Notes under the pieces: model-generated
Seen by the model: only the letters and a program-made list of their open reading frames with translations
Told to the model about the DNA's origin: nothing
Databases searched by the model: none
DNA from: Strigamia acuminata
Taxonomy: Eukaryota
Assembly (NCBI GenBank): GCA_949358305.1
Contig: OX442314.1
Coordinates: 28,954,001-29,018,000, forward strand
Reading direction: 5' to 3'
DNA length: 64,000 nt
Translations under genes and position numbers: made by a program
In this document: positions 1-23,700 of the stretch, piece by piece
Numbering within the stretch: the stretch's first letter is position 1
Layout: the number at the start of each line of letters is the position of its first letter

Positions 1-1840
1 TTGTCCAGGCCGCCATAGCTTGCCGACTGTCCAAGAAGACGCCCAGGGATAGCAGCTGGGCCAGTACGTTCGTCACAGCCAAATTCAAACTGCTCCGATG
101 GCAGGGGTGAGCGCGGTCCGGATTGTCACTGAATTGCTGTGACAACGTCCGCATCTGTTCGATCGCCCAGTTGATGTGGTGAGTTTGGGCGGCGTCGGCC
201 TGTCGTATGGCCAACTCGGCAATCGCGGGGTTCTCGTATTCGGCCAGATATTCTTGTAACTCGCTGAGTGAGGGATAGGCCGCTTCACGCCGGCATCTGG
301 CGTCCATCCCCCGCTGCGCGTACCACTCGGCGTTGCGATGAGGATGGTACACTCGTGGCGTCGGGGGTGACGGTGGACGGCCCATCCCTGGTAGGTCGTC
401 GTATCTGACCCGTTTGGGAGTTGGATCTCCCACCGGAATCATCCGGGGAGGGGTCCACGTGGTCACTGCTGGGTTTGTACCCTCGAGGAGTGGCGGCCAT
501 CGCGATTGCACCTGTGGGGGCACAAGCGCGGTGGGCACAGCCGGTGTTGAGCCCGACGGCCGGTTGGCCGCGTATCCTCGGAAGGCGTTCTTCAATGCCA
601 TGGCCAGATCTTGTTTCGTGACCGGTCCATCCTTGTCCGACTCTTCTTGGGATATTTGTTCTTCCGTCAATTCTCCCAAATCAATCTCTGCCTGGAGCCT
701 GGACGGCCCAGCCGCGGATCCGAGACTTCGGGGTTCGGACCTTTTTGCGGCGGCCATCTCTCGCTCTTTCTCCAATCCTTTCGCGATCAGAGACCGCGCA
801 CGCGTCTTCTGTCGTACTTTACGCTTCCGATTCCTCCTGGTGTTGGCTGCGACGGATCTTTGTTGGACCGTCCTCTGGGGGACGTCCGTCGGGGAATCCG
901 GTCTCTGGTGTGTTGAGACGGTTCGTCGCGACGAGGATTGATCTGACGACTGTGTGGTAATCGCCATAAACAACGAGGATCTTTTCTTTCCTCGATCTTG
1001 GTGTGTCTCGGACCTCGCAGCCCAGTGGGCGGAAGATTCGACCGTTCGCTCAGCCCGCGCGTCGTCTGGCGAGGCAGGCTCGAGCGTTACTACTCGGCGA
1101 CACTCCGAGCGCACGACAACTCGAGTTCGGGAACTGGAGCTGCTCGAGCGGCTGCGGTAGTCGCGACTCGTTGACGGGCCGGCCTCTGTTGGGGAGACGG
1201 CCTGTCTTCTTCGTGCGGGTCCGCGTGGGGCGGACTCCGCCGGACGCTTCGATCTTCTGTGATGGCGGCGACTTCCCAGGATACCAGCGTGGTATAACTG
1301 CCACATCTCAGACTGCGTGGCCGTAAAATTCGCCGGTGGTATCCATCTGGGTGTCAAATGGTCTTCTTCGATGTCGCGAAGCCATCTACGGATTTCTTCG
1401 GGGGAGAAACCGTTTCTCTCGAGAACTCGGGTTACTCCGTGAGTCTCGGTGCGCTTTAAGCGTTCGATCTCGTCGTCCACTATTTTCTGGCGGGCTGCCA
1501 AGGTCGGGGCCTCGCTCCACCTGTGGGAGGTGTGCAGCTCGGCCACCGTGCCTGGGTAAGCCTCTTCCAGGTACCCGGAGTAAACGGGGCTCGGCGGATC
1601 CGCATCGGGTGGGATCCGCGGCCCCACTCGCTCCCTCATCTCCTTCGTCATGCACTCGACCAGCGTTTTCGATCGCTCGAATTTTTCCTCGAGGGTCCTG
1701 GAGTACATCAATCGGATTTTCCAGGCGCTGGTCTCTGCAGGATAGGCCTGCCGCAGGTAAATCGGCAGGGCTCCGCGAAAGATGTTGTTGGCGGTTGACA
1801 CCGTCGAAGGCAGGGCGTCCCACGATTCTAGCGGGTCGAC
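1..1840 (-). CDS. Main (last visible) exon of accessory ORF3 of element 1, >=613 codons, runs off the left edge; unknown function
   Basis: Acceptor ttattcAG at 1841-1842, then VDPLESWDALPSTVSTANNIFRGALP..WKIRLMYSR..DADPPSP..TQSEMWQLYHAG; same frame reads LLSLGVFLDSRQAMAAWT at the window edge. Colinear with element-2 ORF3. Absent from the ORF track, consistent with no in-window stop in this frame. Confidence 0.85.
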
Positions 1841-2163
1841 CTGAATAATTTTAGATCACAAGATTAATATAATAAATCCCAGTTTAACGATGGGGATCAG
1901 AAATATGCTCAAGATCGACGGTGGCAGCAACTCCTTTCTTTTGTTGCGGCCGTCGGTCTTATTTTCTTGTTTCGCAGTTCTGCGATGATCTCCGCCGTCG
2001 TAGCGCTGATCCAACACTACCTTTGAACTCAGGTGATCCGCTTTTTAGGAAGGGGTCGCAGGCAAAACCGATCGTTAAATTCTTAATATTACGTTAAACT
2101 TTTTATTTTAACTCTAATCGTATTTTAATTTATTACGATGTTTAATTTTAAAAGAAAGAAAAC

Positions 2164-2518
2164 CTTTAGTTTTGGTTTTGGTTTGCCACGACGCCATTCC
2201 GCGAACACTTCCTTTGTTCTAGTTTTTTGGCGGCCTTGACTCCGAGGTGAATCTGGGTCCACTCTCGGGTTTTTAGCCAGCCTTAAATCAATAATAAAAC
2301 AGAAAGAAATATATCAGTCACAAGTCACGCTCCAATCTGGGTTGGATGCAACAGATTCAAAGAATTATGTGATTTCTCTGGGGAAATCACACTAATTTTA
2401 CCTGCAACGGCGGTTGTTCGTCCCAATTCTCATCGTCTTCTGCATTTACGATTAGGCCGTCGCTCTCGTCTCTCGACGATGCGCTCGGCTCTAATCGTGG
2501 GTTGCGTCGATCGGCCAT
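2164..2518 (-). CDS. Predicted upstream exons of element-1 ORF3 (2518-2402; possible 8-nt microexon 2336-2329; 2281-2164)
   Basis: ATG at 2518 gives MADRRNPRLEPS...EQPPLQ then CAG|GTAAAA (phase 0). Phases 0/2/0 join in frame to the 1840 acceptor only if the microexon is used; donors GTGACT and GTTTTC are weak. Confidence 0.5.
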
Positions 2519-2898: not shown

Positions 2899-5800
2899 TT
2901 AGTTCTTCCCCACGACTTTGCCGTCCCGAATGAACGGATTATTGCTTCGTCGTGGTCGAAGGTTGATTTTCGACGTGCTCGTAGATCGTGACTCTACTTG
3001 CTCGTTCATCTCCGATGTGTTGGCATTTTTCTCATTATTAATTTTTTTATTTTCCATTTCAGAAGTACATTCTTCTGCTTCCTCCCTCTCCGAAATTGCT
3101 TGCTCCGGCTGTGCTGGAGCCTCGTCGGCCGGAGATTCGGCGTCGAAGAATTCATCCTCGTCCTCCGCTATATTTTCAGCTTCATTTGTTTTTTGGAACG
3201 TGTCGACCACGGTGCCCCCTTGGCCGCTGTGTGTCTGACCTTCCAGCCAGATTTCTTGGGGAAACTCTGGCAGATATGGCCTTAAATCTCGGCCATGTAT
3301 CGACTGAAAATTTTTGTTGTCCTCTAAGCGGCGTAGTTGGTATGCGTTGCCGCCGTGTTCGGCCACAATTACATAGGGACCGTCCCTCTTGTCGGCTAAA
3401 CCTGCGGCGATGCCCCTCGCTGCATTGGACAACGTGTGTGCCTCCTTCCACACTAGATCATTCACTTTAAAGTTCGCGAAAGCGAGATCGCCTTCTTTAT
3501 CTGCGATTCTTTCTCTCATGTTGAAAATATGCGCCATCATATGCTGGTATGTGTCGGATATAGTCTGTTCCAACCGGCACACGTACTCGTGTGGGCTCGA
3601 TGGGTCTAATACGTTAACAGCTTCGGCAACGCGTGGGTCCCATGGCATCCTTAATTCGCGGGCGAAGTTGAGGTACGCCGGTGAGAATTCGCGTGTTCTT
3701 GACACGGTTGAGCGAATGCTGAAAGCGATTTCTCGCAGGTATTCGTCCCATCGATTGTGAATGTCGGTGAATACTGTCAGCGCATATTTTATATCTTTAT
3801 TTAATCTCTCGACTGGGTTTGTCTGAGGATTATATGTGGAGGTGTTCGATGCATCCATTTTAAATTTCCTACAGAAGTCCTTATATATTCTTGATCGGAA
3901 TTGGGGGCCGTTATCCGAAATGAGTTTTCTGGGAAACCCAAATCGCATTGCCACGTCGTAAAGGCACTCGACTATGTTTTCAGCCGAGGGCTTCGCGAGG
4001 GCGTACAGCTCCGGCCATCGGGTGGCCACGTCCATAATTACGAGAATATACATGTTCTTGTTTCCCGTTGTGGGCTTGGGGCCCATCAAGTCTATGCTTA
4101 AGCAGTCAAACGGTGCGTAGGGTCCGAGAGACATGGCGTTTCTGGCTACTTTATCTCGCGGTCTGCATGCTTGGCACCGGGGGCAGTGTCGGATAAATTT
4201 CGTTATCTTTTGCCGCGCGCCCGGCCAGAAGAAAAGTTGCTTTACTCGATAAAGGGTTCTCGCTATGCCGGAATGGCTGGCGAGCGGGTGTCCGTGCATC
4301 AGCCACAACAGTCGGTTGTGCAGTGATGCCGGTACGACCACTTTCACCGAGTTTCCCGCTCCACTGAGGTCATCTTGAAATGTCGGGTGGTATTTTACCA
4401 GGAGTTCATCATCTATGAGGTAGCTTGTTGCTTCTTTGACGAACTGTTTCCGGCGGTGTGGGTTTGTCATCCCTTCCGGAAATTCGCCGTTCAGCAAATA
4501 TTGTGTTATAATTTGACATTTTGTGTCTGCTGCCTGGTGTTCGACGAACTCACGTCTCGTGGGTGGAGCATATTGCGTTTTTTCTTCAATTTTTGCTGTG
4601 AAGGCGCGTAGTAGTGTTTTGTGGGTTTCTCCGGGGGGCGGAGGTTGAATTGCGGACGTTGAATCGCTCGTCCCAGCTGGCTGGTACGTTCGAGTCCAAA
4701 AACCACAAAACGTTCTATCTTCGGGCTCCATCACCGGCAGTTCGTTTGCTTTTCGTAAGCGCCATATTCTGCGTGGAGTTGGGCAGTACAAGAGGTGGGT
4801 GTCGTCCTCGCCGTCGTCGTCTGGTCCCTGGGGGTCAGAGGCTGGGGCTCTTGAGAGGGCGTCGGCCACATGATTGTACTTCCCGGGGCGGTACGTAATT
4901 GTTATATCGCACGCCATTAACTCCAGTTGCCATCTTGCGAGTCGGCCGGAAGGTTCCTTGAGCTTCATCAACCAGCTTAGTGCCTGGTGATCTGTCTGAA
5001 CCTCGAAGTTCGTGTACTCCAGATAGTCGCGAAATTTTCGAACTGCCCAAATTACGGCTAGGCATTCTAGTTCCGTTGCCGTGTAATTTTTCTCCGCGCC
5101 CTGTATTTTCCTGCTTATAAACATACAGGGTACTTCTTGCGAGATTCCGTTGTACACGTGGGTCTGCAGAAGGGCTGCACCCAGTCCGATTTTACTCGCG
5201 TCGGTGTGCAACACGAACGGTCGGTTTAGGTCCGGCAATGGCATCTTTTCGACGTCAGCCAGCATTTGCTTGATAGTGCTAAATGCGGCCTCGCACTGGA
5301 CCGTCCACTCAAACTCTTTATCCGTTCGTAAGAGATCCGTTATAGGCGCGGCCACCTCAGCCAGACCAGAGAGTAGTCGGCCGAAGAAATTGACCATGCC
5401 CATGAATCTTTGGACACCTTTTATATCTTCGGGGGCGGGGAATCCGTTTATTGCTTTGACCTTTTCGGGGTCAATCGCGATTCCCTCGACTCCTATTCGA
5501 TATCCTAGGAAGGCAAGCTCTTTTCTGCAAAACTTGCTCTTCCCTGGATGGATGTGGAGTCCCGCCTTGGCTAGGCGAGAGACCACTCTGTCGATGTGGT
5601 CTATATGCTCTTCGAATGTGTCCGACGTTATTATTATGTCGTCGAGATACGCCCACACGAAGTCGTGAAGCATATCTCCCAACACGCTTTCGATCAATTT
5701 CTGGAACGTGCTCGGGGCGTTTACAAGCCCGAACGGCATCACGTTGAACATTAATCTTCCTATCGGGGAGTAGAAAGCCGTTTTTAGTTTGTCTTCTGGT

Positions 5801-7035
5801 TTTAGCTCCACTTGCCAATACCCCTTTGACAGATCCATCGTGGTTACCCACTTGAACGGGCTCAGTTCCCGGAGGATCGAGTCTATAGACGGCATCTGAA
5901 TCGGGTCTATAACTGTTATCGCATTCAGGGGGCGATAATCAATGCATAGTCGAGGCTCCGAGCCTGGACGCATTACCAGGACGATCCGCATCGCGTATTC
6001 GCCCAGCGCTTGAGTTACTATGCCCTTGTCGAGCATGTCTTGGCACATCTGCGTCACAATGTCTCTTTTCTGGGGGTTCATCCCCTTGTAAGGCACTCGA
6101 ATCGGCTTGTCTGTGGTTAAGACTATTTCGTGGGTTGCTTCCGTCGTTCGACCAGGTGTCTTGGTCAGAATTCTTTCATGTTTTCGAAGCACTCGCCTTA
6201 GTAGCGATGCCTCGTTAACACGCAGTGCTGCCTCCTCGACCAGTGTGTCCACGACGTTACTCCTCTGTAATTCCAGAGTGAAGGCTGCGAAATCGTAATC
6301 TTGGACGAATTTTCGCAATCCTCTTCCGTATTCCTCTTTGTCCTTGGCTTCGTCCAGTAATTTTTGGGGAACTACGGGGACTGGCCGTTCTCCCTCGGGA
6401 CTTATCCAGTTCCATGAACGGGTTATCGGGTTTGGCTGAATTTTCAGTTTTGCCATGATATCCATCCCTAAGAGGAATACTTTGTCGTGGGATGGCAAGA
6501 CTATGAAGGGGTGGGACAGGTTCCCCCCCTTCCAGTCGATCATGATGCGAACTACGCCCCTCGGCTTGACGTAGCCGTTGGCGGTGAGCAATTCTACGTT
6601 CGCGTTCACTTGTGCCACCTTTTTTTCAATATCCAAGTCCTTTACTATATCTTCGGATATGAATGAACGATCTGCTCCTGAATCCAGCAGACCGAACAAT
6701 TTTTGGTTTTCGATCTCCACTGGCAGCATACACAGAGTTTCGCAATGTGCTTTCGTGACATTGCAGTGAAATACGCGTAATGTCTGGGGCTCAACCTCCA
6801 GATTGAACGGAAGGTCCGTCCAATCCATGTCGACCTCCGGTTTCGTTCTCACTTGCATACTCGTTAACGTCACTTTTTCCTCCTTCTTCGGAACGATCTG
6901 TATGCGGTCTTTGATCTGTGCCTCTGCCAAGGCATGACCTGCGGGTCCAGTGTGATATTTCTTCTTTTTAATTTCCGCGGCTGGCGCAGACGAAGCTGAA
7001 TTTATTTCGGCGACGCCTGCGCTTGGAAGTTTTTT
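2899..7035 (-). CDS. pol: Pol of element 1 (protease, reverse transcriptase, RNase H, integrase with GPY/F motif), entered by -1 frameshift
   Basis: LLDSGA, AYLDD, HTDAS, HGHPLASH..CPRC, IDLMGP/SDNG/NPVER, RDGPY; the -1 frame is open back to the slippery site. Confidence 0.96.
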   Translation of the reverse strand, partial: KKLPSAGVAEINSASSAPAAEIKKKKYHTGPAGHALAEAQIKDRIQIVPKKEEKVTLTSMQVRTKPEVDMDWTDLPFNLEVEPQTLRVFHCNVTKAHCETLCMLPVEIENQKLFGLLDSGADRSFISEDIVKDLDIEKKVAQVNANVELLTANGYVKPRGVVRIMIDWKGGNLSHPFIVLPSHDKVFLLGMDIMAKLKIQPNPITRSWNWISPEGERPVPVVPQKLLDEAKDKEEYGRGLRKFVQDYDFAAFTLELQRSNVVDTLVEEAALRVNEASLLRRVLRKHERILTKTPGRTTEATHEIVLTTDKPIRVPYKGMNPQKRDIVTQMCQDMLDKGIVTQALGEYAMRIVLVMRPGSEPRLCIDYRPLNAITVIDPIQMPSIDSILRELSPFKWVTTMDLSKGYWQVELKPEDKLKTAFYSPIGRLMFNVMPFGLVNAPSTFQKLIESVLGDMLHDFVWAYLDDIIITSDTFEEHIDHIDRVVSRLAKAGLHIHPGKSKFCRKELAFLGYRIGVEGIAIDPEKVKAINGFPAPEDIKGVQRFMGMVNFFGRLLSGLAEVAAPITDLLRTDKEFEWTVQCEAAFSTIKQMLADVEKMPLPDLNRPFVLHTDASKIGLGAALLQTHVYNGISQEVPCMFISRKIQGAEKNYTATELECLAVIWAVRKFRDYLEYTNFEVQTDHQALSWLMKLKEPSGRLARWQLELMACDITITYRPGKYNHVADALSRAPASDPQGPDDDGEDDTHLLYCPTPRRIWRLRKANELPVMEPEDRTFCGFWTRTYQPAGTSDSTSAIQPPPPGETHKTLLRAFTAKIEEKTQYAPPTRREFVEHQAADTKCQIITQYLLNGEFPEGMTNPHRRKQFVKEATSYLIDDELLVKYHPTFQDDLSGAGNSVKVVVPASLHNRLLWLMHGHPLASHSGIARTLYRVKQLFFWPGARQKITKFIRHCPRCQACRPRDKVARNAMSLGPYAPFDCLSIDLMGPKPTTGNKNMYILVIMDVATRWPELYALAKPSAENIVECLYDVAMRFGFPRKLISDNGPQFRSRIYKDFCRKFKMDASNTSTYNPQTNPVERLNKDIKYALTVFTDIHNRWDEYLREIAFSIRSTVSRTREFSPAYLNFARELRMPWDPRVAEAVNVLDPSSPHEYVCRLEQTISDTYQHMMAHIFNMRERIADKEGDLAFANFKVNDLVWKEAHTLSNAARGIAAGLADKRDGPYVIVAEHGGNAYQLRRLEDNKNFQSIHGRDLRPYLPEFPQEIWLEGQTHSGQGGTVVDTFQKTNEAENIAEDEDEFFDAESPADEAPAQPEQAISEREEAEECTSEMENKKINNEKNANTSEMNEQVESRSTSTSKINLRPRRSNNPFIRDGKVVGKN
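6984..7035 (-). promoter_or_regulatory. -1 programmed ribosomal frameshift signal (element 1)
   Basis: A_AAA_AAC (7035-7029) in gag register, 6-nt spacer, stem GCGCAGGCG/CGUCUGCGC; pol is in the -1 frame. Confidence 0.85.
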
Positions 7036-10000
7036 GCCAGATCAGTTCTTAACTCCATCATCATTTTCATCATGGTTTGCATGATGTCCTTTTCTTTGAC
7101 GGTTTTCTCACATTTATCTGAGTAGTGGCCGTATTCTCCACAGCTGTAACATTTGATGTTACTTTTATCCCCTGTGGGAGTGAATCCCGGTTTTTTCGGG
7201 ACGAAGGGCGTCGGGAATCGTCTTTTTCCTCCCAATGCTCCTCTCGCTTTTGTTGCTTGCACGTGTGCTCTGAATTGTGTGATTGCCAAGGCCCGGTGTG
7301 CATGGTGCAAATAGGGACCTTGATCGTCGCATCCCGTCGATAAGTTTTCGAGGTGCTCATTTAGGGCTTCCTCGTCGCTCGATGCTGGCTCCTCTTCTTT
7401 AGCCGTGGCGAGAGGTGTTGTCTCTTCGACTTTCTCCATCTGGGTGGAGTCCGTCGAGGTCACCTGCATCGCCGTCGCTGCCGGTGCTTTCTTTGGGGCA
7501 GCTATCGGGTTGGCTGGAAGAATACTGCCTGCTTTAGGCGTCAGCATTCGTCCGAAGGATGCTTCGGTGAGACTCATTATGCCGCTCAAATATTCACTTG
7601 GCCTCATTAATTTTTCTGAGGTCTTGTGGCGTTCGGCGCTCGTCTGCAACCGCTTCTCGTGCGCGTCAGCTTCTTCCGGGGGCAGAGTGGCGTAATACCG
7701 CTGTTCTATTTCTAACGTGTTTGTTAGAAGATAGTTACTGACATCTTGGTAATCGCCAGTGCGGGGTGCACGCATGTCTAGCAGAATTCTTTGCGAGTGG
7801 GCCGATAATCCTCCGTAAAAGATCATCGTAAAACCAGCGGGGTTTATTTCGTACGGCGCTCTTGCAAACAGGAGTTTCGCTCGGGCGTCGTAGTCGGCTA
7901 ATGTTTCTCCTGGGGCTTGCCGTAGACCACGTAATTTGTTACTGATCTCGTCTGGAGTCTCGCCGTATCGGAGATCGAAACGGACGAGAAAATCGTCCCA
8001 GGTTGGGTTTTTCAGTCCCTGATACCATTCTCGAGCTGACCCCGTGGTTAGCTCCACTAGACCGTGGGTTAGCATGTCGGCGACGGTGGCTTTTGTCGCT
8101 TTCTTGATACGCATTACTTCGTCTAGGAAGCGGTCTCCGGCCTTCCACGAACCGTCGAATCGTGTTTGTATGTAGTGTTGCCAACGGATGTTACCCGTGG
8201 CTTCGCTGCTTGGTTCGTTTCGTACGCCATATTTGCGCTTAACCCTCTCTCCGGCGCGATTATGTTCGTCGCCTGGATGGCCTAGATCTATTCCTTCTCT
8301 TCTGAAAGAGTTCAGCAGGGCTCGGCCTAGCTCAGACATCGTGTAATGTCGGCCAGATGAGTCCTGAAAGTTCCCTTCCTCCGAACGAGGGTTGGAGCTC
8401 CGGGAGGAGCGGTCTGAAGCATTCGGCCGGTTCGACCGGTGCCCATCGCTGTCTTCTTGACTCCTCCCTGTAGACGGTCGACTCGGATGGTCGTCGTCCG
8501 ACGAATCGGAGGGCTCGGAGGGATCTCCTTGGGGGTGAAACCTCGGCCCTCTCGGTGGGGTCTCTCCGCCAGCCTTCTTCTGTTTCGAGCCTCCGGATGG
8601 CGGCGGCTCCCCTCCGTCGTTGTTCTCGTAAAAAGAATGCCATCTGTTTTCCTCGCTTTCGGGGCGTTCCCGATTTTTATTTGCGTTTTTCTTTTCGAGT
8701 AACGCGTCGATGGCTGCTCCCGTCTCGGATCTTTTTGAGGGGTGACGGTCCTTTGTTTTTGGGACCGACTCGTCTCTCTTTTGAGATTTCCCCCTTTTCG
8801 CCGTTTTTGCCGGCTTTGTTGCACCTTCTCCTGTGTCGGTATCAGAGCCGCTGGGGGGTTCTGGTTTCCGTTTCAGGTTTTCTTCATTTTTCTTCCTGTC
8901 CGAGACGTCTTGTGCGTACTCTTTCTGGAACTTTTCTGTCTCCTTCTCCCAGTTTTCGGCTTCCCATCTTTTTTGCTCATCTATTATAGCTTGTTTCTTC
9001 GCTTTGTACTCTTCGGTCCATCTGACTCGATCCCACTCTTCTTTCTCTTTCAGAAACTGTTCTTTTTCTTTTCTGGCTTCCTCTTCTCTCAACCTCTCGC
9101 GATGTTGTTCTTCCCATTTCTGATGTTGTAGAATGGCCTCTTTTCGCAACATTTGTAGTTTTTCTGTTTTTCTTTGAGCTATTAGCGCTTGAAATTGGTC
9201 CTCGTACTCTTGAGCTTCTCGATGTCGCCCTTCTACTGTTGCGTTCCATTCTTTTCGAATTTTAGCTTCTCGTTCTTCCCTCATTTTTTGGACCAGTTTC
9301 TCTGTTCTCTCGGTGGTTCTTCTCTCGCGTTGCTCCCTTTCTTCCTCTTCCTTCCAGAGTTCTCGCCGCTCTGCGCTCAGCCTTCGTTGGCGACTAGTCG
9401 CTTCTTGTCTGGCTTCCTCGCGGGCCTTCTCTCTGGATTCGTGAAGTGTTCGGTTGGGGTCTGGCGCGAAACCTCCGGTGTCACTGGGCGTTACCTGGGG
9501 CATGGGCGTCTCCGCTGCTGGTCTTGCGACCGGCGTCGGGGCTTGTGCCGCACAGATAGCGTCAGTGAGTAGGGTAATCGATTCCCAGACTGACGTTCCT
9601 ACTGGAATGTCTATCATCGCTTTTAGCTGGGCAGCTTGCTGCGTCAACCGAATTAGGTGAGATACTTCGAAGGAAACAACTGCAGGACTCGCCGTAACTC
9701 GGGGGGTTATCGGGGTCCCGCCGTCGTTTTTCCGTGGGGTTTGTTTTACGGACGTCTGAGCCGTTGGTGGCGATGGGTCTGTGCCGATCGTGACCGTTAT
9801 TTTCGGAGCTTCATTCGTCTCCTCGGTCATCAATATCGATACTCGTCCTGGCGATACGTCGCGAATTTCTTCTCGATTTTCTATGGCTTCCGGATCGGTA
9901 TCTTCGAAGGGTTGCATATTCAAGGGAACCCGCTCTCGCTCTGGCCCGTCTAGGGCCGCGAGCGATGCAGCTTGCTCCTCTTTCTGCGCCTTCGCTCTCC

Positions 10001-10142
10001 TTTTATTCGCTCGGGCTTTCGCCTTTGCGGACATTTCAGGGACGGGACCATCCGATCTCAGGTGGTAGTCGGAGGTCCTTTTTCCCTTCTCGGGCATTCT
10101 CTGCTCGGTTTCAGACGTGGATTGCTCGTCTTTGTCTGACAT
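7002..10142 (-). CDS. gag: Gag of element 1 (1046 aa; E/R/K coiled-coil, disordered region, capsid-like domain, CCHC knuckle)
   Basis: AREWY..WDDFLVRFDLRYG..LRQAPGETLADY retrotransposon-gag motif; CYSCGEYGHYSDKC. Confidence 0.93.
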   Translation of the reverse strand: MSDKDEQSTSETEQRMPEKGKRTSDYHLRSDGPVPEMSAKAKARANKRRAKAQKEEQAASLAALDGPERERVPLNMQPFEDTDPEAIENREEIRDVSPGRVSILMTEETNEAPKITVTIGTDPSPPTAQTSVKQTPRKNDGGTPITPRVTASPAVVSFEVSHLIRLTQQAAQLKAMIDIPVGTSVWESITLLTDAICAAQAPTPVARPAAETPMPQVTPSDTGGFAPDPNRTLHESREKAREEARQEATSRQRRLSAERRELWKEEEEREQRERRTTERTEKLVQKMREEREAKIRKEWNATVEGRHREAQEYEDQFQALIAQRKTEKLQMLRKEAILQHQKWEEQHRERLREEEARKEKEQFLKEKEEWDRVRWTEEYKAKKQAIIDEQKRWEAENWEKETEKFQKEYAQDVSDRKKNEENLKRKPEPPSGSDTDTGEGATKPAKTAKRGKSQKRDESVPKTKDRHPSKRSETGAAIDALLEKKNANKNRERPESEENRWHSFYENNDGGEPPPSGGSKQKKAGGETPPRGPRFHPQGDPSEPSDSSDDDHPSRPSTGRSQEDSDGHRSNRPNASDRSSRSSNPRSEEGNFQDSSGRHYTMSELGRALLNSFRREGIDLGHPGDEHNRAGERVKRKYGVRNEPSSEATGNIRWQHYIQTRFDGSWKAGDRFLDEVMRIKKATKATVADMLTHGLVELTTGSAREWYQGLKNPTWDDFLVRFDLRYGETPDEISNKLRGLRQAPGETLADYDARAKLLFARAPYEINPAGFTMIFYGGLSAHSQRILLDMRAPRTGDYQDVSNYLLTNTLEIEQRYYATLPPEEADAHEKRLQTSAERHKTSEKLMRPSEYLSGIMSLTEASFGRMLTPKAGSILPANPIAAPKKAPAATAMQVTSTDSTQMEKVEETTPLATAKEEEPASSDEEALNEHLENLSTGCDDQGPYLHHAHRALAITQFRAHVQATKARGALGGKRRFPTPFVPKKPGFTPTGDKSNIKCYSCGEYGHYSDKCEKTVKEKDIMQTMMKMMMELRTDLAKNFQAQASPK

Positions 10143-10216
10143 TTTCTTTCGGTAATTCTACGATTTGGGTTATCTTATTGAGAGATCACAAGTTCAGATT
10201 TGAGATTTATTTCTAA

Positions 10217-10234
10217 ATCCCGGCCAGGCCCCCA
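10217..10234 (-). promoter_or_regulatory. Primer-binding site, tRNA-Pro type (element 1)
   Basis: TGGGGGCCTGGCCGGGAT, 2 nt (CG) after the LTR; resembles canonical tRNA-Pro PBS TGGGGGCTCGTCCGGGAT. Confidence 0.85.
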
Positions 10235-10236
10235 CG

Positions 10237-11056
10237 TGTCGCGTCCTACTTGGTATAGGTTTAAATAGCGCTAACGTGTAATACTTTACCTGTGATCAAT
10301 TATGTAAATACCCAAATGAATACCAAATGTATGTAAATAAACAGGTAATTTATTCACCAGGCTTTATGCCTTTAAAATACACTCAGTAATAATTCTAGAG
10401 TCGACGTGGTCAGCGTCGAACAAAGGATTTCTCAAGATGGCGTCGTCGATTCCGCGTGGTCGGCGGAACAAAGGCGGCGTCTCGAGTTGTCGTTAATTCG
10501 TCACGGATTCGTCTTCACGGACGCGGTGGAATGCTCTTTCGAGTCTTCTATCCGTGCCTGTTGTCTAGGGTTTGTTTAGCGTCGCAGAGGCCTCGTCTAG
10601 GAACTTTGGGGTTCCCTACAAAGCACTCGGACACTTACTTCGGCGAATAATCGTCTGGGCGATTATTCTGGGTGATTTCACAAGGGCTATTCTCGTGCTT
10701 TCGCAGGAATAGCTCGCAAGTGACTTCGTGAGAGTTACAGTTTGCACTTTACTCAGCGATCCTCGATCAATCCTAACTTGTAGTTGAAGTTGGCCTGACG
10801 GTGAGGTAGTTGCTGTGTTCTTGGTGTCGTTTGTGTAAGTTCTGTCTTTAGGCGGGAAACACAGCCTTTTATGCAGTGGGGTGAAGGGCCGGCGATCAAC
10901 CAATGGGGGCTGACCACCAGCCGCTTCCTCCCCGTCGGGGCACACACCTGCCATGGGGAGGTGGAGCCAACTCGGGGGGGAACGACTCTTTAATCATAGT
11001 GACTCATAGGACAAGTATCCGCCCTGGGGGGACACTTATCCAACTGGGTCACCACA
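10237..11056 (-). repeat. 5' LTR of element 1 (820 bp)
   Basis: Minus strand starts TGTGGTGA (same as element-2 LTR) and ends ..CGACA next to the PBS; partner LTR not in window. Confidence 0.8.
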
Positions 11057-12503: not shown

Positions 12504-13462
12504 TGCTGCGATCCGGGTTTTTATCCACTTAATTTCTAATAAATTAAGCAGAAACCGCAGGTGAATGCTTTACAAGACTTATATCGCGGCCGAAACTTGT
12601 CTAGGGTTAAGTTTACGGAAATAGGAATAAAAAGACAGTTTATTATGGTAATAAAAATCACACAAATGTTTTATTCGATAAATTACAATATATACTAATT
12701 ATGATTGTGAATATCACAGAATAAAATGAGCGGGAAACAATGAAACAAAGGAAGGGCTTGCAACGACTGTTGCAAGCTACAAAGCGTCAGAAATGGCGCT
12801 TAAACAACTTGAAGTTGTTAGGCGAAGGCAAATTGTCTTCGTTCTACGAACTCACGAACGATGGTCGAAGACGATGGTTCTCGTGGGCTCCTTCTACGGC
12901 TCGTGCGACGGCTCGGCGGCGGTGGTTGACGGCTGTAGGCGTCCGGCTTTCGTACGATGGCGGTGGCTGTCGTTCGCGCAACAGCGACGGCGATGGTTCA
13001 CGATCGTCGGGAATCTTCTCTTCTCGATTGCTGGAATTAGCGACGGCTAATTCAAGCAGGATTGCTGGCTTTGTGCGTTTGATACACAAAGATAGCAGGT
13101 GAAACTGAGTTACAACGGTCCTCTATCAATACTTTTCTTTCAGGAGCAAAAGCAGTGATGTTGAGGTTGTTGTTGTATTTTTCAGAGTCTCGATTTGAGC
13201 CAAGACGCGAGCCCAGCACGCTTCAATATTGCGCAGAAAACCTGCGCACTTAGCTCAAATGGGTGCAACTAGTGGTTATTACACCATATTGCACCATAAC
13301 GGCTAATAACCGTTTTCACCCCGGACAACCTGGGGTGATATGTGCCTAGAGAGGATTTCTCCCCTCGGTCACATGATCTGACTTGGCGTGTGCCACAGTC
13401 AAATTAATTAGAAGATAATTAATTTAATCTTCTAAGTTGGTGAATATTTTGAGATCACCACA
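12504..13462 (-). repeat. 3' LTR of element 2
   Basis: Direct repeat of 23885-24843 (offset 11,381); preceded on - by the purine tract AAATGGGGGGATG (PPT, ~13463-13475). Confidence 0.97.
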
Positions 13463-13514: not shown

Positions 13515-16310
13515 TTATGATTCGTCCATGGTCTGAGTTCGCTCAGGCGTCAACGGGCGCATCATATCCGTGGTGTCGTCCCTCGGGTTGGACCGCTCGT
13601 TAACCGTACACAGGTCGCGACCTGCGTTTGGTCCGGAGACCATTCCAGGGTTGACATGAAGCCAAACCTGGATGATTCTTGCCGAGTTCGCTCGGTTGAA
13701 GAATCCTAGCGCCGCGAACTCGATTGGATCCTCTGGCGCTAATCGTGCTCTCAGGAGTCGATCATGGAGCACCGATGGTGGGCTTAACACCCGGATGTGG
13801 TCCTCGAGCCACATAAACACCTGCCTCGACAACTTGTGGTTGTTGCTAAGCAGTGTTCGCGTATCCGGCGTCAAATAGAAGTGCGGATACAGGCGCATTA
13901 GGGTCTTGAAAGCCGACTCTTTTTTCAGCGGCTTGACCTTCGTCTCCGGCTTGGCTGGCGGCGGCGGCGGCGGACGTGAGTCTTCCGTCGTGGCATCGTC
14001 AAACTGGCACTGCGGGCCCAAGAAAACCAACGCGGGTGCGGAGGTTGACGAGGGTGTGACGCCTCGTCCCGGTGCTCGACCCACACCGGGGAGCTGACGG
14101 GTTTCGACTACCCGTTGAACTCCGGCTGGAGTTTGAGAACTTCCGGCGTTCTCTGGCCAAAATGAACATCCAGCGCCCTCTTGGGCCGACTGGAAAACAG
14201 CCAGTGACGCAGCTGCTGTGGCGCTTGTAACTGGAAGCGGTGGTCTTCCGGTCATTCGCGCCGTGGCCTTCGCAAAGGACCACTCGGTTCGCAACCGAAC
14301 GGCGGCCTCTTCTTCGGTCTCACCGTTTGCTACGACTTGCTTTATTAGCTCGGCTAAGATCGTAGGCGGGTCGAGCCTGAGGTGGTACCACAGCTCGACT
14401 TTCTTCTCCGACAGGCCCATCGGCGCGGTCCAAAGGTACGTTATGGCCGCTAACGCCTGTCCTGGCGAAGGAAGAACACCAGGGTACAACACCCTAGTCA
14501 TCCCCGGAATTAGCTGACGCTGAAAATCCATCAGACGGGGATCATCAATGGTATTGATGTCGGAGACTTCTAGCCTTTCAGCTAGTCTCTGCCAGTCCTT
14601 CTGCGACTCGGCGATCTGGGCGCTTTGGTATGCGTCCAGCTTCTGGAGCACTTCCTGCTGTGCTCTAATGGGTTGCTGCTCGTAGCAGGTCCATTGTGGG
14701 CCGAATGACTCACTAAAAAATGGCCGGAGTTGCAGGTTGCTAACTCCAGCCGGCAAGCGGGAAACATATCCTTGTTCGGGCAAGCGGCTAGCATGTCCAG
14801 GTACTGGCACGCTACAGTCGGGAGAAATATCACCGACAACACGTCTCATGGCGTATGGAGTAGCCGAGTTGTCCACTTTGAACGTGGAGGCGGTTCGGCT
14901 ACTTCGGGCGGACTTAATTGTGGAGTCCGATTCAAAACTCAGCGAAGACGACGAGCCAAACGACTCTGGTGTCCGTCCTCGTCGCGACTGCGGGCGTGAT
15001 GGCTGCGCGTCAGTCGAATATGGGCGTGATCGCTTCTGACGTTCCTCTCGATCGCGGCTTGATTCGCGGAACATCGGTCGGACTGGAACCGGCGGAGGGA
15101 GTTGCCCCACCCTCAAATCCTCGTCTTGCGGCGGAGGATTGATGGCCGCTGGGGCCGGAATTTCATCTTCTTGATAAAAAGGGAGAGCGCAACGCGCTTG
15201 CTCCTCTGCCTCGTGTTCTCGAGCCAGTTGTCGATTTTCGTCGACGCGAAGCTGCACCGCGGCAGCTCGGAGTGCTTTGGACGGGAAAAATCCCGGAAAA
15301 TCGTTAAAACACCCGGCGAGCGCCAACTGGTGGAGCTCGGTTTGTGTGACGGGAAGTTGTGGGTTCCCGTCACGAACGGATTTGCGATACCGTTTAACGA
15401 CTTCGCGTTGTGTCGTCTTGAGGTTCTTCCTCAATTGGGTTAGAGCACCGTAATTAATTCCGGTACTCTTTAGCGCTCTTCTGCGCTCGTGACGCTCTCG
15501 TGGCGTCACTGGCCACTGGTTGTGCAGCAACTCTGCTGCAAGCGGTCCTGGGGGGCTCTCGTCGAGCGTCCACTCGATTTCGTCGACACCGTCCACGTGA
15601 AGGCGCTCGATGAATCTTCCTTTTGCACCAAATCCTTGCAGCGCTGATCTGCTGAAGTCGTGGCGCAACTTCCACCAGGTATTGTTTGCCGTCTTCAGTC
15701 TTCTGATTTTTTCGGGCAATGCCGCTCGAAAAATCAGCGGGTGCTGAGTCGGCACGTGATCGGGAAGCGCGAATGGCGTTTCTCGATCCCTCTCGATCTG
15801 TATTCGAAGAAAAATAAATAAATTAGTTTATTTAAAAATAAACAAATAATTTCTTATTTGAAATATTTTTTAAGCTTAGCGCTTGTGGCTGTGAGTCACT
15901 AAGGGATGTTGGTTGTCATGGCAACTCCCTTCGCACATGCTTGAAGCACGTGACTTTTATAGCCGCCATTTTTATTTTTTAGCGGCTTGTGTTTGAAGTC
16001 AGGAAAAGTGAAATTACTCAATTTTTCTGACTTAAACACTTGGTAAAAATTTATTCTAATAATTTACCCGTTGTTGAAGCGTCAATTGAACGTCTTCATT
16101 TGCCCCTTCCATGGGCATTTCTCCGTCCGCCTGGAGTTGGATCGCTTCCTCGTCCATTCTCTTTCGTTTTCCGGTAATTTCGGAAATTCTTTCGTCTTGA
16201 AAGAGAAATAATACATAAATCTTATGTTTTATCAAATTTTTCATACAGAAAAATTACTTACGATCAGGTTGTCGAACTATTCGGGTCGTAACGTAGGCGA
16301 TGCGATGCAT
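13515..16310 (-). CDS. Accessory ORF3 of element 2: predicted 3 exons (16310-16262, 16195-16068, 15797-13515), ~819 aa, unknown function, not Env-like
   Basis: ATG at 16310; GTAAGT donor (phase 1) matches tttcAAG acceptor (phase 1); GTAAAT donor (phase 0) matches taCAG acceptor (phase 0), giving MHRIAYVTTRIVRQPDHERISEITGKRKR..QQR-IERDRETPFALPDHVPTQHPLIFRAALP..; no signal peptide or TM helix evident. Confidence 0.82.
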
Positions 16311-16329: not shown

Positions 16330-16450
16330 AAAAGTGACTAAGTTCGTTGATTGCAAACACGAACTTGGATTAGAGACGCTTTGTGACGTCACTAATTATA
16401 ACGTATGATTAACGTTGTCATTCGAGTGGGTACTACGAATGACGTCACGA
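16330..16450 (-). promoter_or_regulatory. Candidate internal promoter for ORF3
   Basis: Two TGACGTCA (CRE/ATF) palindromes at 16384 and 16440; TTAGTC initiator-like motif ~30 nt before the ATG. Confidence 0.35.
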
Positions 16451-16499: not shown

Positions 16500-19400
16500 C
16501 TATGTCTTGGCTCGCGGAACGCGAGATCTCAAGTTGTACTTTGACTTTCGCGAAGTACAATCCAACTTGTTTAGATTGTCATCAGCATCGTCTCCAATGT
16601 CAGATGAGTTATATACTTCATTGTTTGAAATTTTCTCTTTTTCTAAAAACATTTCCTTTTCTAGATTTTCATCAAGAGAAACATTTTCAAGTCGCTGGTT
16701 TATTTCATCGACTTCGTTATTTTTGAGTTTCGATTTTTTACTCGATTCCGTGTTTTCGACAGGAATTTTGGATAATTTAGCATCATCCAAGGTATTAACA
16801 ATATTTTTTGTTTTTTGACCCACTTCCTCCCCTTCCAGCCAAATTTCTTGGTTGAAAACGGGAAAGTACGGCATTAATTCAGTGCCGTGAACAGCTGGAT
16901 AAATTTTATTATCACTCAGCCGTCGAAGTTGAAAGGCGCCTCCTTGTAACCTTTTGATAATTACATAAGGCCCATTCCTTTTCGGTGAAATGCCTGCTGC
17001 TATTCCTTTAGCGGCATTTGAGAGAATATGAGACTCTCGCCAGACTAAATCATTTTGTCTGAAGTTGTCGAATTTCTTATCTGATTTTTCAGCTTCGACA
17101 CGGCGTCTCAAATCTAAGACGTGAGACATCATATGCTGATACGTCTCTGCAATTATTGTTTCTAATTTCTGAACATATAAATGCGGATTTTTTGGATCAA
17201 TGACTAAAATTCCTTCCGGAATTCTTGGATCCCAAGGAATTCTTAATTCTCGGAAAAAATTTAAGAAAGCAGGAGAATAATCTCTGCCTCTTGTTACAGT
17301 TGTTCTCAAACTGAATGCAAATTCGCGTAGATACTCATCCCATTGGTCATGAATATCTAAATAAATCGAAACTAAATATTTAATATCTCGATTGGTTCTC
17401 TCCACAGGATTGCTTTGTGGATGATAAATCGATGTCGGTGTTCGCGACATGTCGAATTTTTTGCAAAATTCTTTATAGACCTGTGATCGAAATTGTGGTC
17501 CATTATCACTTATGATTTGTCTCGGAAATCCGAAAGTCATTGATAAGTGATAAATTGTGTTGGCAACTTTTATTGCCGTTGGATTACACATTGGAAATAA
17601 TTCGGGCCAATGTGTAGCGACATCTACGATGACGCAAATGTGGGTATTGTTTTTTCTGGTTCTTGGTTTGGGACCAGACAAATCCACACTGAGGCAGTCA
17701 AATGGTCCAAATGGTCCAATTTGAGCGCCTTCAATTTCGGTCTTTGATCTCGGCTTACATGCCTGACATCCTTGACAATGTTGAATAAAACGTGTAATAT
17801 CACGTTTCATACCTTTCCAGGTATAAACTCTTCGAGTTCGGTACATTGTCCTCGCAATGCCTGGGTGGCCGGACAGTGGATGTCCGTGCATCAACCAAAT
17901 GATTTTATAAATCAATTTTCTTGGCACAACAACTTTAAGTGCCCTACCATCCTCTCCCAATTCATCGGTGGAGGTAGGATGATAATGGAGTAGCATATCT
18001 TCTTCAATGAGATAAGTACTCGCGTGTCTTTCAAAGTTTCTTCTTTGAAGACGAGTTACTATGTAACTTGGATATTGCTTGTTTAGCAAGTAATTGCGAA
18101 TATGTTGGCAAAATTCGTCTGCTTTTTGCGCTGCAATAATGTCATCTCTCGTTGGAGGATCACATTCTAATTGCTTCGCAATTTTAGCTGCAAATGCTTT
18201 AATTAAAACATTTGTTGTTGGCAGCTCGAATTTTTTAGCCATCATAGCTCTTAATTCGACGTCAGGGGTTCCTGACGGATCATGCATGTTAATACAAAAA
18301 TTAATTAATGCTTGATCGTCGTCATTAACTATTATTGACTTGGGTAATTCGTTCAATTTTCCCATTTGCCAACTTCGGCAAGGAGATGGACAATATGATA
18401 ATAAATCATCATTATCGCCATCGTCTTCTGGTTCGTCAGGTGCGCTGACAGGTGCACGTGACAATGCGTCTGCTATTACATTTAGCGGACCTTTGACGTA
18501 TTGTATTTCGAACGAATACGCCATCAGCTCCATTTGCCAACGAGCTAATCTGCCCGACGGGTCAGATAACGACATCAACCACCTAAGTGCTTGGTGATCC
18601 GTTTGTACAGTGAATGTAGTGTACTCTAAGTATGGGCGAAATTTGCGTAATCCCCATACTACTGCGAGACATTCTAATTCTGTCACAGTATAATTCTTTT
18701 CAGCGGGTTGCAAGCTTCTGCTTGCATACACGCATGGCATTTCGACTTCTTGGCCATCCACATTTTTCTTTTGTGTAAGGGCTGCACCCAACCCTTGTTT
18801 ACTGGCGTCAGTATGAACAATAAATGGCATGTACAAGTCAGGCATCTTCATTGTTTCAGCATTCGTAAGCAGGTCTTTTATTGCGTCGAATGCTGCTTGA
18901 TGATGCAGTTCCCAATCGAACTCCGCATCTTTCTTCAAGAGTGGCCTTAGTGGTTCTGCCACTGTGGCCAAATTCTTGATTAGGCGGTGAAAGAAATTCA
19001 CCATGCCTAGAAATCTTTGTAATTCCTTAAGATTGGTAGGAGCAGGAAATTGCGTAATTGCAGCGACTTTTTTAGGGTCTACTGCAAGTCCTTCTACTCC
19101 TACTTTGTAGCCTAGAAAAATTAATTCCTTTCTACAGAGATGCGTCTTGCCAGGGTGCGCATGTAAATTAGCTTCTGCCAATTTTTTAAACACTATATCT
19201 AAATGTTTAATGTGTTCTTCGAACGATTTGGATACAATAATTATGTCATCCAAATATGCCCATGCAAATTTTCTGTAAACGTCACCCAAAACTTTTTCCA
19301 TTAATTCTTGGAAGGTAGTTGGTGCGTTTACTAATCCGAAAGGCATGACTAAAAACATTAGTCTTCCCATTGGGCTCCAGAAGGCAGTTTTTTCTCTGTC

Positions 19401-20759: not shown

Positions 20760-23700
20760 CGAAACATGTCAGTTATGATCTTGACTGCTTTTTCAAACTC
20801 AGCTGTTGACACTGGTTTGTCCTTTTTAGAGGAAGGGCAGTCTTTTTGCCAATGCCCTAATTTTTTGCATAAATTGCATGGATCAGTGGCAGGCGATTTC
20901 TTTTTCGTTGCTGCTGGCGAGGCAGAACGAGAACGAGCGTCAGACCGGCGCTCTGGCGACACCGCAGGTGACTTTGAATTCCTTTCGGTATTCACCTTTG
21001 ATGCGTCAAATGAAACATTTTTTGGTTTCATCCTTGGCTTCCATTTGCCCGCAACGGGGTTATTTTTTGCTAACAACGCCGCTGCTTTGGCCAATAAAGC
21101 CATCGTCTCGTCTCCTGTTTCCTCCTCCTCTTCAGCTTCTTCAGCTTCAGACGACGGAGTTTCAGCTCCAGTTATATTTGCGTGTAACTTAGGGACTGAA
21201 TGAGGATTTTTGACGTCCTTTTTGGAAGATTCTTTTTTCGAACTCTTCTCATCCACTTCGTCTAGAAAGTCTTCGTAACTAGGTGGCTGCAACAATTTCA
21301 AACCATTAAAGGTTTCATTGTTTTGCTCAGCGAGTCTTTTCTCTCGCTTTAAGTACGCTGACCTTTCGGCTTCTGTAAGATAAGCTTTGTACTTTTCGTC
21401 AATGCGCAATTGATTGACTTCCATGAATTCGTTTAACTCGGAGAATTTCCCCGGGTCGGGAGCGTCCGACATCATCAGAATATTTTTACTATATTCTGTG
21501 AGGCCAGCTCTAAACTGATCATCTGCTGTTGCATCAGTAACAGCATGTGGCATTCTGCCAAGCAGATTCTCTGCTCTTAGCATGTACGAATGTAAGCTTT
21601 CGCCTTTTCGTTGCTTAAGACATCTCCAGAGCGTTTTGATGTCTTCGCTCGATTCACCAAATTTAAACATAAATTGTTTAACGAAGTCATCCCACTTCGT
21701 GAAGTCTTTCCTGCGAAACCACTCCTTGACACCGCCAACTAGTATTCTTGGTACTAGATGGGCCAATGCACCTTCACAGCTAAAACTGTGAACTTTGCCT
21801 AGTTCGAATATTTCCAGCAAGAGGTTTGACCCTGCTTGCCAATTTCCATTATAGGCATGTGGGATAACTCGATCCCATCTAATGAACTTTTCATCTGTTG
21901 TTTGATGAGTCCATTTATCAGAAGTAAATTCACTTATTTTTTGCAAAATAATTTTATCCCTTCTGCTTTTTCGCTGTTGTTGAGCATTTTGCCTCAACAA
22001 CTGGTCAATCTCATCTTTCGTGTAGAAATCGGGTCTTTGAGTTCTACTACGTGTTCTGTGACGAGATCGCCCTCTCACACTGGGACGTGAGGAATCTGTA
22101 TCTGACGCAGATTCATGATTCGGATTTGGCGGCGGATCAGGGTCCGGAGGATCGTCGCCATCTGGCGGACGACGGTCTCCATTTGGTGGTCCCCTTCCAT
22201 TTCGATTGCCATTCGAATTGTGGTCACGTGAGTGGCCACCTCCATGTCCATCTGAACTATCTCCACCTGGTGGGTCACCACCTGGCGGATTTCCACGGTA
22301 TCTCGGCCCATCACGGATGTCGTTATGACAATCTCGTTTTGGTGAGCCTTCTCGCGGATTATCGTGTGACCGTCCACGATCGTGTGGTTTCTCACGTTCT
22401 TTATTCTTTTTCTCTAGCATTCCGATTAATCGGTCGCTATTGCTAAAGAATCGATCCGAATCTTGCGTAACTTTTGGGGAATGATATTCGGTCGGGTCTG
22501 GTTGTCGCTTTCGCTTTTTGCGACTGTGATGACTGTTACGGCTTCCACGACTACTGCGTGAGTCATCACTGTCAGTCCAACTTGATTGTCGACTGACTTT
22601 TGGTTTAGCTGATGTTAAATCAATCAACTCAGGTGATTTGGAAGCACCTTTTTGCAAAACTGGGGCTGGCTTTGCAAAATTATCTTCGCCACAAACGTCT
22701 TGTACTTTTTGTACTACTACTGCAAAGTTCTCTTGTACCGTCAATAGATCTGCGCGAAGAATTTCGTTTTCACGAGCTTGCGCAGCTAAGTCGGCACGTA
22801 ATAACTGCTCTGCAGTACTTTGACTTTTGGCGGCTAGACCAGCATCAATTACGGACTGCTGTCGAGCGAGAAATACTTCGTTTTCTCGTTGTGCTAATCT
22901 CTTAGCTCTTGCTGCTTGCTCTGCAGCATGATTCTCGTAATTTCGAGAAGTGGAGGGAATTACTTCCCTCGCTCGAACTGGGGCGGTTAGTTCGGCAGTC
23001 ATTAAATTTGTGTTGGCTTCTCGCAAATTTGCGTTGGCCAATCTCAAATTTTCATTAGCAATTTCTAAATCTTTTTGGGCTTGATTTAGTTGCTCGAGCC
23101 TTTGTTGTTGCTCTTCGTCAGTAATTAGCCAGGAAGCTTTTTCCTGTTCTAATTGTAACAACTTAACATGGTCATTCGCACGTTGTTGTTTTAGTTCGGC
23201 ATTTTGCTGATGCATTTCTGCATGCATTCGCTCGAACTCTGCTTGCAAGCTTGTTCTGACGATTTCAACGTCCTTTTGGCTTTGTTTGCGAACCATAGCT
23301 TTGTGGATTTGTTCCACAGTCATTTCGCTAGTGACTTTTACTCCCTCGAGCCTAGCTTGCTCACGGAGTGCGTCCATCATGGTAACACGCACGGGAGAAT
23401 GAGAAACTTCCATATTGGAGTTCTCAGAATCTTGCTGTGCTGCACCTTGAACCGGTGATGAATTCAGCGAGTGCTCTGCACTTGATGATTGAATTCGTAA
23501 ATTCAAATCATCGTTTTGCGACTTGGAACGGCCACTTCCAGTTGGATTGTTTAAGTCCAACTGGCCGCTTGGCGGGGATGGCTTTTGTCGCTCCAACGCT
23601 TGCGTGAATTCATTCACGATTAACTGTGCCGAGTTACAGTTAGCTGTTTGATCCATAGTTTCAAACAGTTCTTGTGACTCAGTCACTTCTTGATCCACGG

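Follow-up and report, generated by a model that had tools for sequence, protein, structure and literature searches.

What the third open reading frame of a gypsy-like retrotransposon does for the element is the question raised by this locus. The minus strand of the window, the 64,000-nt stretch of Strigamia acuminata DNA that was analysed, carries two Ty3/gypsy elements, E1 and E2, each with an ORF3 downstream of pol. The preliminary description had proposed that the ORF3 of E1 is homologous to that of E2, that both begin at an intron in the same position, and that the gene is an old, selected trait of a whole lineage.

Table 1. Features of elements E1 and E2 and of their ORF3 genes
Feature	Position	Strand	Details
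E1 5′ LTR	10237..11056	-	820 nt, TG..CA
E1 primer-binding site	10217..10234	-	
E1 gag frame	7002..10157	-	1051 codons; one CCHC knuckle
E1 pol (PR-RT-RH-IN)	2899..7041	-	intact; -1 overlap with gag at AAAAAAC site
E1 first coding exon (predicted)	2402..2518	-	ATG 2518 or ATG 2445
E1 first intron (predicted)	2282..2401	-	120 nt, GT..AAG; splice signals; indel at 2396
E1 middle exon (predicted)	2164..2281	-	118 nt, 50% GC; acceptor, open frame, no listed indel
E1 second intron (predicted)	1841..2163	-	323 nt, GT..CAG, phase 0; weak donor at 2163; 5 of 10 listed indels inside
E1 ORF3 main exon	2..1840	-	613 codons; no stop before window edge
E1 ORF3 N-terminal domain	1271..1828	-	about residues 5-190, significant core 9-107; predicted helical
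E1 ORF3 S/R/P-rich linker	272..1270	-	Arg/Lys clusters; predicted disordered
E1 ORF3 C-terminal domain	2..271	-	residues 524-613, cut at window edge; predicted helical
E2 5′ LTR	23885..24843	-	
E2 gag frame	20747..23773	-	1008 codons
E2 pol	16500..20768	-	intact
Two TGACGTCA palindromes	16384..16447	.	candidate internal promoter, between E2 pol stop and ORF3
E2 first coding exon (predicted)	16262..16310	-	49 nt from ATG 16310
E2 first intron (predicted)	16196..16261	-	66 nt, GTAAGT..AAG, phase 1
E2 middle exon (predicted)	16068..16195	-	128 nt
E2 second intron (predicted)	15798..16067	-	270 nt, GTAAAT..CAG, phase 0
E2 ORF3 main exon	13515..15797	-	760 codons, to its stop
E2 3′ LTR	12504..13462	-	959 nt

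As judged by Pfam, both pol proteins have the order protease, RT, RNase H and integrase, and neither contains a chromodomain. The 5′ LTR and primer-binding site of E1, the latter of which we take to resemble a tRNA-Pro site, lie inside the window and its 3′ end lies beyond the window edge; in E2 the two 959-nt LTRs are identical and are accompanied by a PPT and a target duplication of 4 nt (ATAT). The pol proteins are 50% identical over 1295 columns (63% in RT-RNase H and 56% in integrase), and the gag proteins align weakly from end to end (Smith-Waterman score 433; shuffle maximum 88, n=200). Outside relatives of pol, the best among 93 matches, had 28-47% identity. A FastTree tree built on 95 rows, with no named reference element (Osvaldo, Ulysses or Woot) among them, placed E1 and E2 in one clade with a support of 100 and a long stem (0.58). 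The LTRs had been described as alignable at their termini only, and this was contradicted by an internal block of ~60 nt found in both (score 35; 0 of 1000 dinucleotide shuffles), the core 12-mer of which is, within the window, confined to the three LTRs. DNA similarity between the two pol-ORF3 spacers was absent. Contigs from two runs covered E1 and E2 uniformly and at much greater depth than the flanks, as expected of multicopy DNA. No Rfam match was found in 1-25000. The window also contains pieces of a degenerin/ENaC gene (Pfam ASC, E 4e-15) and short introns, which mark the DNA as animal.

The E1 frame is open from a stop to the window edge (1855..2, 618 codons). Downstream of the AG at 1841 it runs for 613 codons with zero in-frame stops, in line with the frame first proposed, and the five other frames over 1-1840 contain 7-17 stops each. 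The third frame of E2 (15827-13515) has 770 codons. Four pairs of motifs had been matched by eye, and they are collinear (E1 residues 9/40, 79, 175 and 599; E2 residues 10/42, 79, 151 and 439). Blocks 1 and 2 form a single 100-column alignment with 30 identities (blastp E 3e-7), and the Smith-Waterman score of 98 for the N-terminal ~100 residues was reached by none of 500 full shuffles (maximum 73) and none of 500 shuffles in ten-residue windows (maximum 87). Taken alone, blocks 3 and 4 were not significant, their scores being reached by 296 and 636 of 2000 shuffles, respectively. An S/R-rich, disordered linker had also been described in both proteins; S plus R reaches 24 per 50 residues in E1 and 23 in E2, and disorder is predicted.

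When a profile was run against a large protein set (1,835,955,588 representatives), the N-domains of E1 and E2 returned one match, P0094 (525 aa, E 4.3e-8). This is a 'hypothetical protein' from a 2921-nt JGI/IMG contig and the sole member of its cluster. The E1 N-domain scored 145 with P0094, compared to 98 with E2. The query profile contained no C-terminal sequence; nevertheless, P0094 gave gapless alignments with both C-domains, spanning 89 columns in E1 (P0094 residues 316-404; 1 of 1000 shuffles) and 77 columns in E2 (17 of 1000 shuffles). Both end on the fourth motif. Because P0094 is collinear with both domains of E1 and E2, we regard the two-domain family as real, with three known members. 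Of the four-block homology, blocks 1 and 2 thus stand on the shuffles and block 4 stands through P0094, but block 3 is a match by eye only.

A word-based protein search with E2 ORF3 matched none of 7997 candidates of 418-1330 aa, and a word-based search of 7996 candidates with a four-row profile returned P0094 itself and nothing else. Pfam, searched with E up to 1, gave no family for E1 ORF3, E2 ORF3 or P0094, DEDDy exonuclease and GDSL esterase domains included, and no PDB sequence matched ORF3. P0094 gave one weak row each in PHROGs and NCBIfam (E 0.036 and 0.083, respectively); in the ESM Atlas, the E2 N-domain gave two rows under 0.8, and P0094 gave no usable match. Metagenome and viral contigs were scanned by pattern for the DNA of P0094 and yielded none, and E1 ORF3 and pol had no match in the viral contigs. 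A scan with an integrase pattern yielded matches in none of 66 metagenome stretches and in 7 of 31 viral stretches, all distant (25-39%) and none with ORF3. Two of the viral stretches, L001 and L004, are permuted ordinary gag-pol. With two domains aligned in three sequences and no match to the family in any library searched, the suggestion of a possibly undescribed two-domain family has held up. The known carriers of ORF3 are two elements of one host, plus the P0094 protein without genomic context. The occurrence of a homologous ORF3 in elements only 50% identical in pol supports the old origin that had been claimed, and the gene is very probably real and ancestral to E1 and E2.

The whole exon model in Table 1 was predicted from the sequence, and all of its exons lie downstream of pol. 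Each main exon follows a T-rich tract and CAG (at 1841 in E1 and 15798 in E2), both acceptors are phase 0, and neither main exon has an in-frame ATG ahead of the conserved block. On a crude score for T-rich acceptors in E1, 2281 reached 14 (best of the element) and 1840 reached 9, compared to a best of 4.5 in gag-pol. From the acceptor to the common ALP motif there are 8 codons in E1 and 9 in E2; the junctions are one codon apart, in a stretch that is unalignable. Upstream of this the predicted architectures run in parallel (a first intron ending in AAG, a middle exon, and a phase-0 second intron ending in CAG), with the first intron in phase 2 in E1 and phase 1 in E2. In E1, translation from ATG 2518 gives 39 codons in phase 0, in frame only when the middle exon is skipped (a stop is met otherwise); ATG 2445 gives 44 nt in phase 2 and stays in frame when the middle exon is included.

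At its C-terminal end, the product of the middle exon resembles the part of P0094 immediately upstream of the N-domain, with an anchored P of 0.008 over 6 residues and 0.02 over 10, four exons at four lengths having been tried; the resemblance was not significant over 15 or 25 residues. The exon from ATG 2518 showed no resemblance (P 0.25-0.74). This likeness lends weak support to a three-exon model, and E1 probably has two introns, as E2 does, with an extra exon at 2281-2164, rather than one. As regards the shared intron position, the phase-0 acceptors one codon apart agree with the earlier claim, but its single-intron model is probably incomplete. P0094 is open for 67 codons upstream of the N-domain and may either lack the second intron or derive from a spliced transcript. 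A further candidate exon, at 2045-1891, was rejected, having no suitable acceptor and a minor-copy indel at 2042. Contigs of both runs span the introns, and none of the listed joints (2 of 2 and 15 of 52, from runs that are not on record as RNA) excises a predicted intron. In one X2 contig the match ends at 1845, at the acceptor. Judged by its splice signals, ORF3 is likely to be spliced roughly as predicted.

Selection was examined among copies, that is, contigs from two runs of one study, neither recorded as RNA, and the window itself may derive from one of them. Among the 40 of 103 substitution rows that were listed, 38 fall in the E1 main exon, 35 of these in 137-913. The 38 comprise 21 silent and 17 residue-changing substitutions and no stops, whereas random placement of the same spectrum would give 11.4 silent substitutions (P 0.001) and 1.5 stops. 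For these 38 substitutions pN/pS is ~0.35, hence not near 1, which upholds the claim of a selected trait for the E1 copies; purifying selection on ORF3 among them is supported. E2 ORF3 had three rows only, one silent and two not. All nine listed rows in E1 pol were silent, suggesting that ORF3 is less constrained than pol. The 10 indels listed (3% share) are confined to 1883-2396 and 2542-2580, and none falls in 2-1840, 2164-2281 or 2402-2518. The non-coding part is a quarter of the stretch, but it is homopolymer-rich, and the naive P of 9e-7 therefore exaggerates the significance of this placement. One low-depth, diverged contig is a counterexample, with four gaps in 1-473.

AlphaFold2 models built with two and four rows had mean pLDDT values of 46.9 and 45.3. 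These low-confidence models concur in making the N- and C-domains helical and the middle disordered. Foldseek searches of viral and PDB libraries at E 0.001 returned no match, to which we attach little weight given the low-confidence model. Clusters of Arg and Lys follow the N-domain in all three proteins (in E1, 10 of the 15 residues at 335-349 are basic), and RS/SR dipeptides number 21, 14 and 8 across the three. Matches to an NES pattern were unspecific and their positions were not aligned.

The position of ORF3 is that of env, and a highly diverged env or fusogen would account for this; hydropathy in E1 reaches 1.75, and the E1 C-terminus lies beyond the window. The E1 value, however, comes from one 19-residue window that is unshared, the peaks are only 1.01 in the complete E2 exon and 1.33 in P0094, and no membrane segment is common to the three proteins. 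Cysteines number 4-7, none of them invariant in the three-way alignment, N-glycosylation sequons occur once in E1 and once in E2, and a signal peptide is absent from the predicted first exons, which are hydrophilic. The set of env or fusogen traits that was looked for (signal peptide, TM anchor, conserved cysteines and glycosylation sites) was not found in ORF3 up to the window edge of E1. The product of ORF3 is not env, and a diverged env, which these data largely refute, is very improbable.

The RNA of E2 is over-structured along its entire length (mean z -2.4 to -3.1) and that of E1 less so (mean z -1.2 to -2.6), with z at 0 in a third gypsy element and the host DNA of the window. This excess persisted under a synonymous-codon null. 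Intron 2 had a z of -6.7 in E2 and -1.95 in E1. A single RRE-like structure in the pol-ORF3 spacer was considered and dropped because the entire elements are over-structured. The two TGACGTCA palindromes ahead of E2 ORF3, a motif that we take to be a CRE, are the only ones in the window. E1 has a half site of TGACGTCA plus CACGTG.

An LTR element is copied via RNA, and a sense-strand intron is lost once spliced RNA is packaged. Because two diverged elements keep comparable introns, the packaged RNA appears to be unspliced at the ORF3 sites. The splice sites would have to be good enough to make an ORF3 message, yet the packaged RNA would have to escape splicing. If the introns persist, then the element makes two RNAs and must export the unspliced one from the nucleus, and a basic, S/R-rich protein made from fully spliced RNA would be a natural switch between them. 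The ORF3 message would be spliced twice and would arise through either an internal promoter or a splice upstream, and its product would likely be soluble and nuclear. By analogy with CERV and Rev, we tentatively favour the reading that ORF3 is a non-env accessory gene that would aid unspliced genomic RNA past splicing or out of the nucleus.

Consistent with this are the homology, the selection in E1, the location of the listed indels outside 2-1840 and 2402-2518, the matching architecture of E1 and E2, and the introns covered by contigs of both runs with no listed joint removing them. The Arg/Lys clusters and RS/SR dipeptides of all three proteins also fit, as does the precedent of CERV, an env-position gene needed for genomic RNA export according to the available part of its description (PMC10309623). 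Against it, no listed joint matches a predicted intron, E1 has a weak donor at 2163, the NES matches are unspecific and unaligned, and the RNA structure of the spacer is not special. Unlike those of CERV, the predicted exons are not common to gag, and no CERV feature is in common, there being no invariant cysteine and the low-confidence models giving no hint of an alpha/beta G-like domain. In addition, cis elements alone export unspliced RNA in many retroelements (Mason-Pfizer monkey virus, as discussed in the part of PMC10309623 available), and selection was counted in E1 only, on 38 listed substitutions (from 40 of 103 rows) of which 35 lie in 137-913. More speculatively, E1 and E2 might represent an independently 'complex' animal gypsy lineage, with a three-exon regulatory gene, introns kept since the 50% pol divergence, and a two-domain product, a new protein family, that would switch the element from one RNA form, spliced or unspliced, to the other. 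Which of two start codons is used in E1 would then also depend on whether the middle exon is included or skipped.

The same homology and selection data would be obtained if ORF3 were real and spliced but acted on transcription or chromatin, as a transactivator of the LTR or an internal promoter, or as an anti-silencing factor. A basic, likely nuclear protein suits this role. The candidate internal promoter suits it too, given the pair of TGACGTCA sites of E2 and, in E1, CACGTG together with a half site; the internal LTR block kept in both elements could be a binding site. The high, even cover of E1 and E2 in two runs suggests successful families, although depth is not copy number, and the Tor elements of Oikopleura have internal promoters for 3′ genes, according to the available part of PMC4402516. 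A transcriptional role by itself, however, leaves intron retention unexplained, and no DNA-binding or chromatin domain was detected; we consider it possible but rather doubtful. We think it unlikely that ORF3 is a particle-associated or cytoplasmic helper that serves nuclear import or integration-complex targeting, assembly, or fusogen-free cell-to-cell passage. The env position and the pol proteins without a chromodomain (Pfam) could be read in this way, and two predicted helical domains with a long, flexible linker between them might fit an adaptor, but the three proteins have no membrane segment in common and no likeness to known movement or fusion proteins.

In reverse transcription it is normally spliced copies that are captured, and this speaks against the idea that a common ancestor captured a host gene with its introns and kept it for a host-like function, P0094 being possibly cellular. 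The short, AT-rich introns are host-like, the gene has three exons with its own start, and P0094 lacks known genomic context; an animal cellular family would nevertheless be expected to give more than one relative in 1.84 billion representatives, and we regard such a capture as improbable. A capture origin is compatible with the other proposed functions of ORF3. The chances also seem poor that the frames are real but the match in intron position is coincidental or the splice sites are unused, ORF3 being made otherwise. For this one can point to junctions one codon apart, first-intron phases of 2 and 1, upstream exons of E1 and E2 that are unalignable, and the 67 open codons ahead of the P0094 domain. 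But the frames open just a few codons ahead of the acceptor and lack an in-frame ATG upstream of the conserved block, and it is these very acceptors that rank as the strongest T-rich ones in their respective elements. Moreover, indels cluster in the predicted introns, and P0094 may come from a spliced transcript.

Export of intron-containing genomic RNA has been settled for few LTR retrotransposons, and CERV is the one element-encoded case that we found in the literature searched. In the available part of its description (PMC10309623), CERV of Cer1, a gypsy/Ty3 element of C. elegans, occupies the env position, has a five-exon mRNA and encodes a nuclear protein needed to export genomic RNA. ORF3 likewise sits in the env position without env homology. 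The first four exons of CERV, however, come from the gag region, whereas ORF3 is predicted to have its own ATG and to be encoded entirely downstream of pol. A Cys loop (M domain) and a GTPase-like G domain are present in CERV, whereas ORF3 has no invariant cysteine, no Pfam or PDB match, and helical low-confidence models (pLDDT 45-47). For CERV, splicing and function are demonstrated (same part of PMC10309623), whereas those of ORF3 are predicted. With no CERV domain feature in common, the relation of ORF3 to CERV is one of 'works like' and not of membership.

If the export reading is true, ORF3 would be a second, unrelated export family with its own retained introns, pointing to repeated invention of retrovirus-like accessory genes by invertebrate elements, and ORF3 elements would offer a testable system for export of unspliced RNA. 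In retroviruses, Rev/Rex and Tas/Tax are regulators made from multiply spliced 3′ messages and have Arg-rich segments. ORF3 resembles them in its Arg-rich segments but is unrelated in sequence, is five times the length of Rev, and belongs to elements without env. Even with another function, ORF3 defines an unannotated two-domain protein family, and it shows that spliced third genes are missed by ORF finders and TE annotation.

Third genes of other kinds offer further comparisons, each drawn from the available part of the paper cited. The ORF3s of bdelloid rotifer LTR elements are likewise non-env third ORFs after pol in animal gypsy-like elements; they are family-specific and encode a DEDDy exonuclease, a GDSL esterase or coiled-coil/TM proteins (PMC5408684). 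Those are recognisable enzymes or TM proteins, whereas the ORF3 of E1 and E2 is Pfam-less and common to elements 50% identical in pol; the word 'intron' is absent from the main text of that paper. In Oikopleura Tor3b and Tor4b, a promoter located in the pol-ORF3 spacer, the site of the E2 candidate, can drive a 3′ env, but the Tor ORF3 is a membrane glycoprotein whose internal-promoter message is without evidence of splicing, whereas that of E1 and E2 is non-membrane and has two predicted introns (PMC4402516). The plant aORF-3S and aORF-3R are, like ORF3, conserved extra ORFs in the interval from pol to the 3′ LTR, and some plant aORFs are nuclear and proposed to be accessory regulators (PMC7264820). 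The plant sense aORFs, however, are often env-like with TM segments and the nuclear ones are antisense, whereas ORF3 is sense, non-TM and animal (PMC7264820). The part available of a paper on env-carrying elements (PMC13524379) contains nothing on an ORF3 gene. In the full-text literature searched, with subscription journals, Repbase and Dfam outside its scope, a self-contained multi-intron third gene in animal gypsy elements is not described. Non-env third ORFs as such are already known from bdelloid rotifer elements, plants and Cer1, and ORF3 is a new protein family in this already known kind of slot, the env position.

Both ORF3-bearing elements, the diverged Ty3/gypsy retrotransposons E1 and E2, were over-structured throughout at the RNA level, whereas the third gypsy element and the host DNA of the window gave folding z values of about 0. 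Mean z was -2.7 to -3.2 in E2 pol and about -1.3 in E1. The excess of structure persisted against a synonymous-codon null, and sense structure exceeded antisense structure in E2 only, not in E1. Several strong hairpins (z -6.7) were also seen at 15870-16000, within the predicted second intron of E2 ORF3, the third gene after pol; the same interval holds a TATA-like motif adjoining CACGTG. The predicted second intron of E1 ORF3 has a GC-rich middle, of which only 1932-2043 was matched by one diverged contig.

The LTRs of E1 and E2 are unalignable except for a common internal block of ~60 nt, whose distance from the end of the LTR is about 285 nt in E1 but about 50 nt in E2. In each element gag and pol overlap in -1 at AAAAAAC. 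The N-terminal halves of the two gag frames are long, coiled-coil-like and disordered, and neither frame gave a Pfam capsid match. Two IMG/VR contigs (L001 and L004), matched in an integrase pattern scan, are ordinary gypsy gag-pol, circularly permuted.

The remaining features of the window are listed with these frames in the table below. E1 is placed directly before what remains of the first degenerin/ENaC gene, and the second is split by the third gypsy element, which has gag-pol as one 1373-codon frame and lacks ORF3. Both arms of the palindromic structure carry 56-nt tandem arrays, and a unit of ~1.68 kb, with nested 31-nt repeats, occurs there in at least nine copies at 99-100% identity.

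Features of the window, with positions
Feature	Position	Strand	Remarks
E1	1-11056		
E1 gag frame	7002-10157		>1000 codons
Shared LTR block	10572 (E1), 12608 (E2)		
First degenerin/ENaC (ASC) gene	11060-11970		paralogue of second; short introns
E2	12504-24843		
E2 gag frame	20747-23773		>1000 codons
Second degenerin/ENaC (ASC) gene	27900-28850 + 33513-33730		short introns
Third gypsy element	28850-33511		unrelated; 181-nt LTRs (99%)
Further LTR element	38637-40402	plus	truncated; gag and protease frames
Large palindromic structure	41747-64000		centre near 46200
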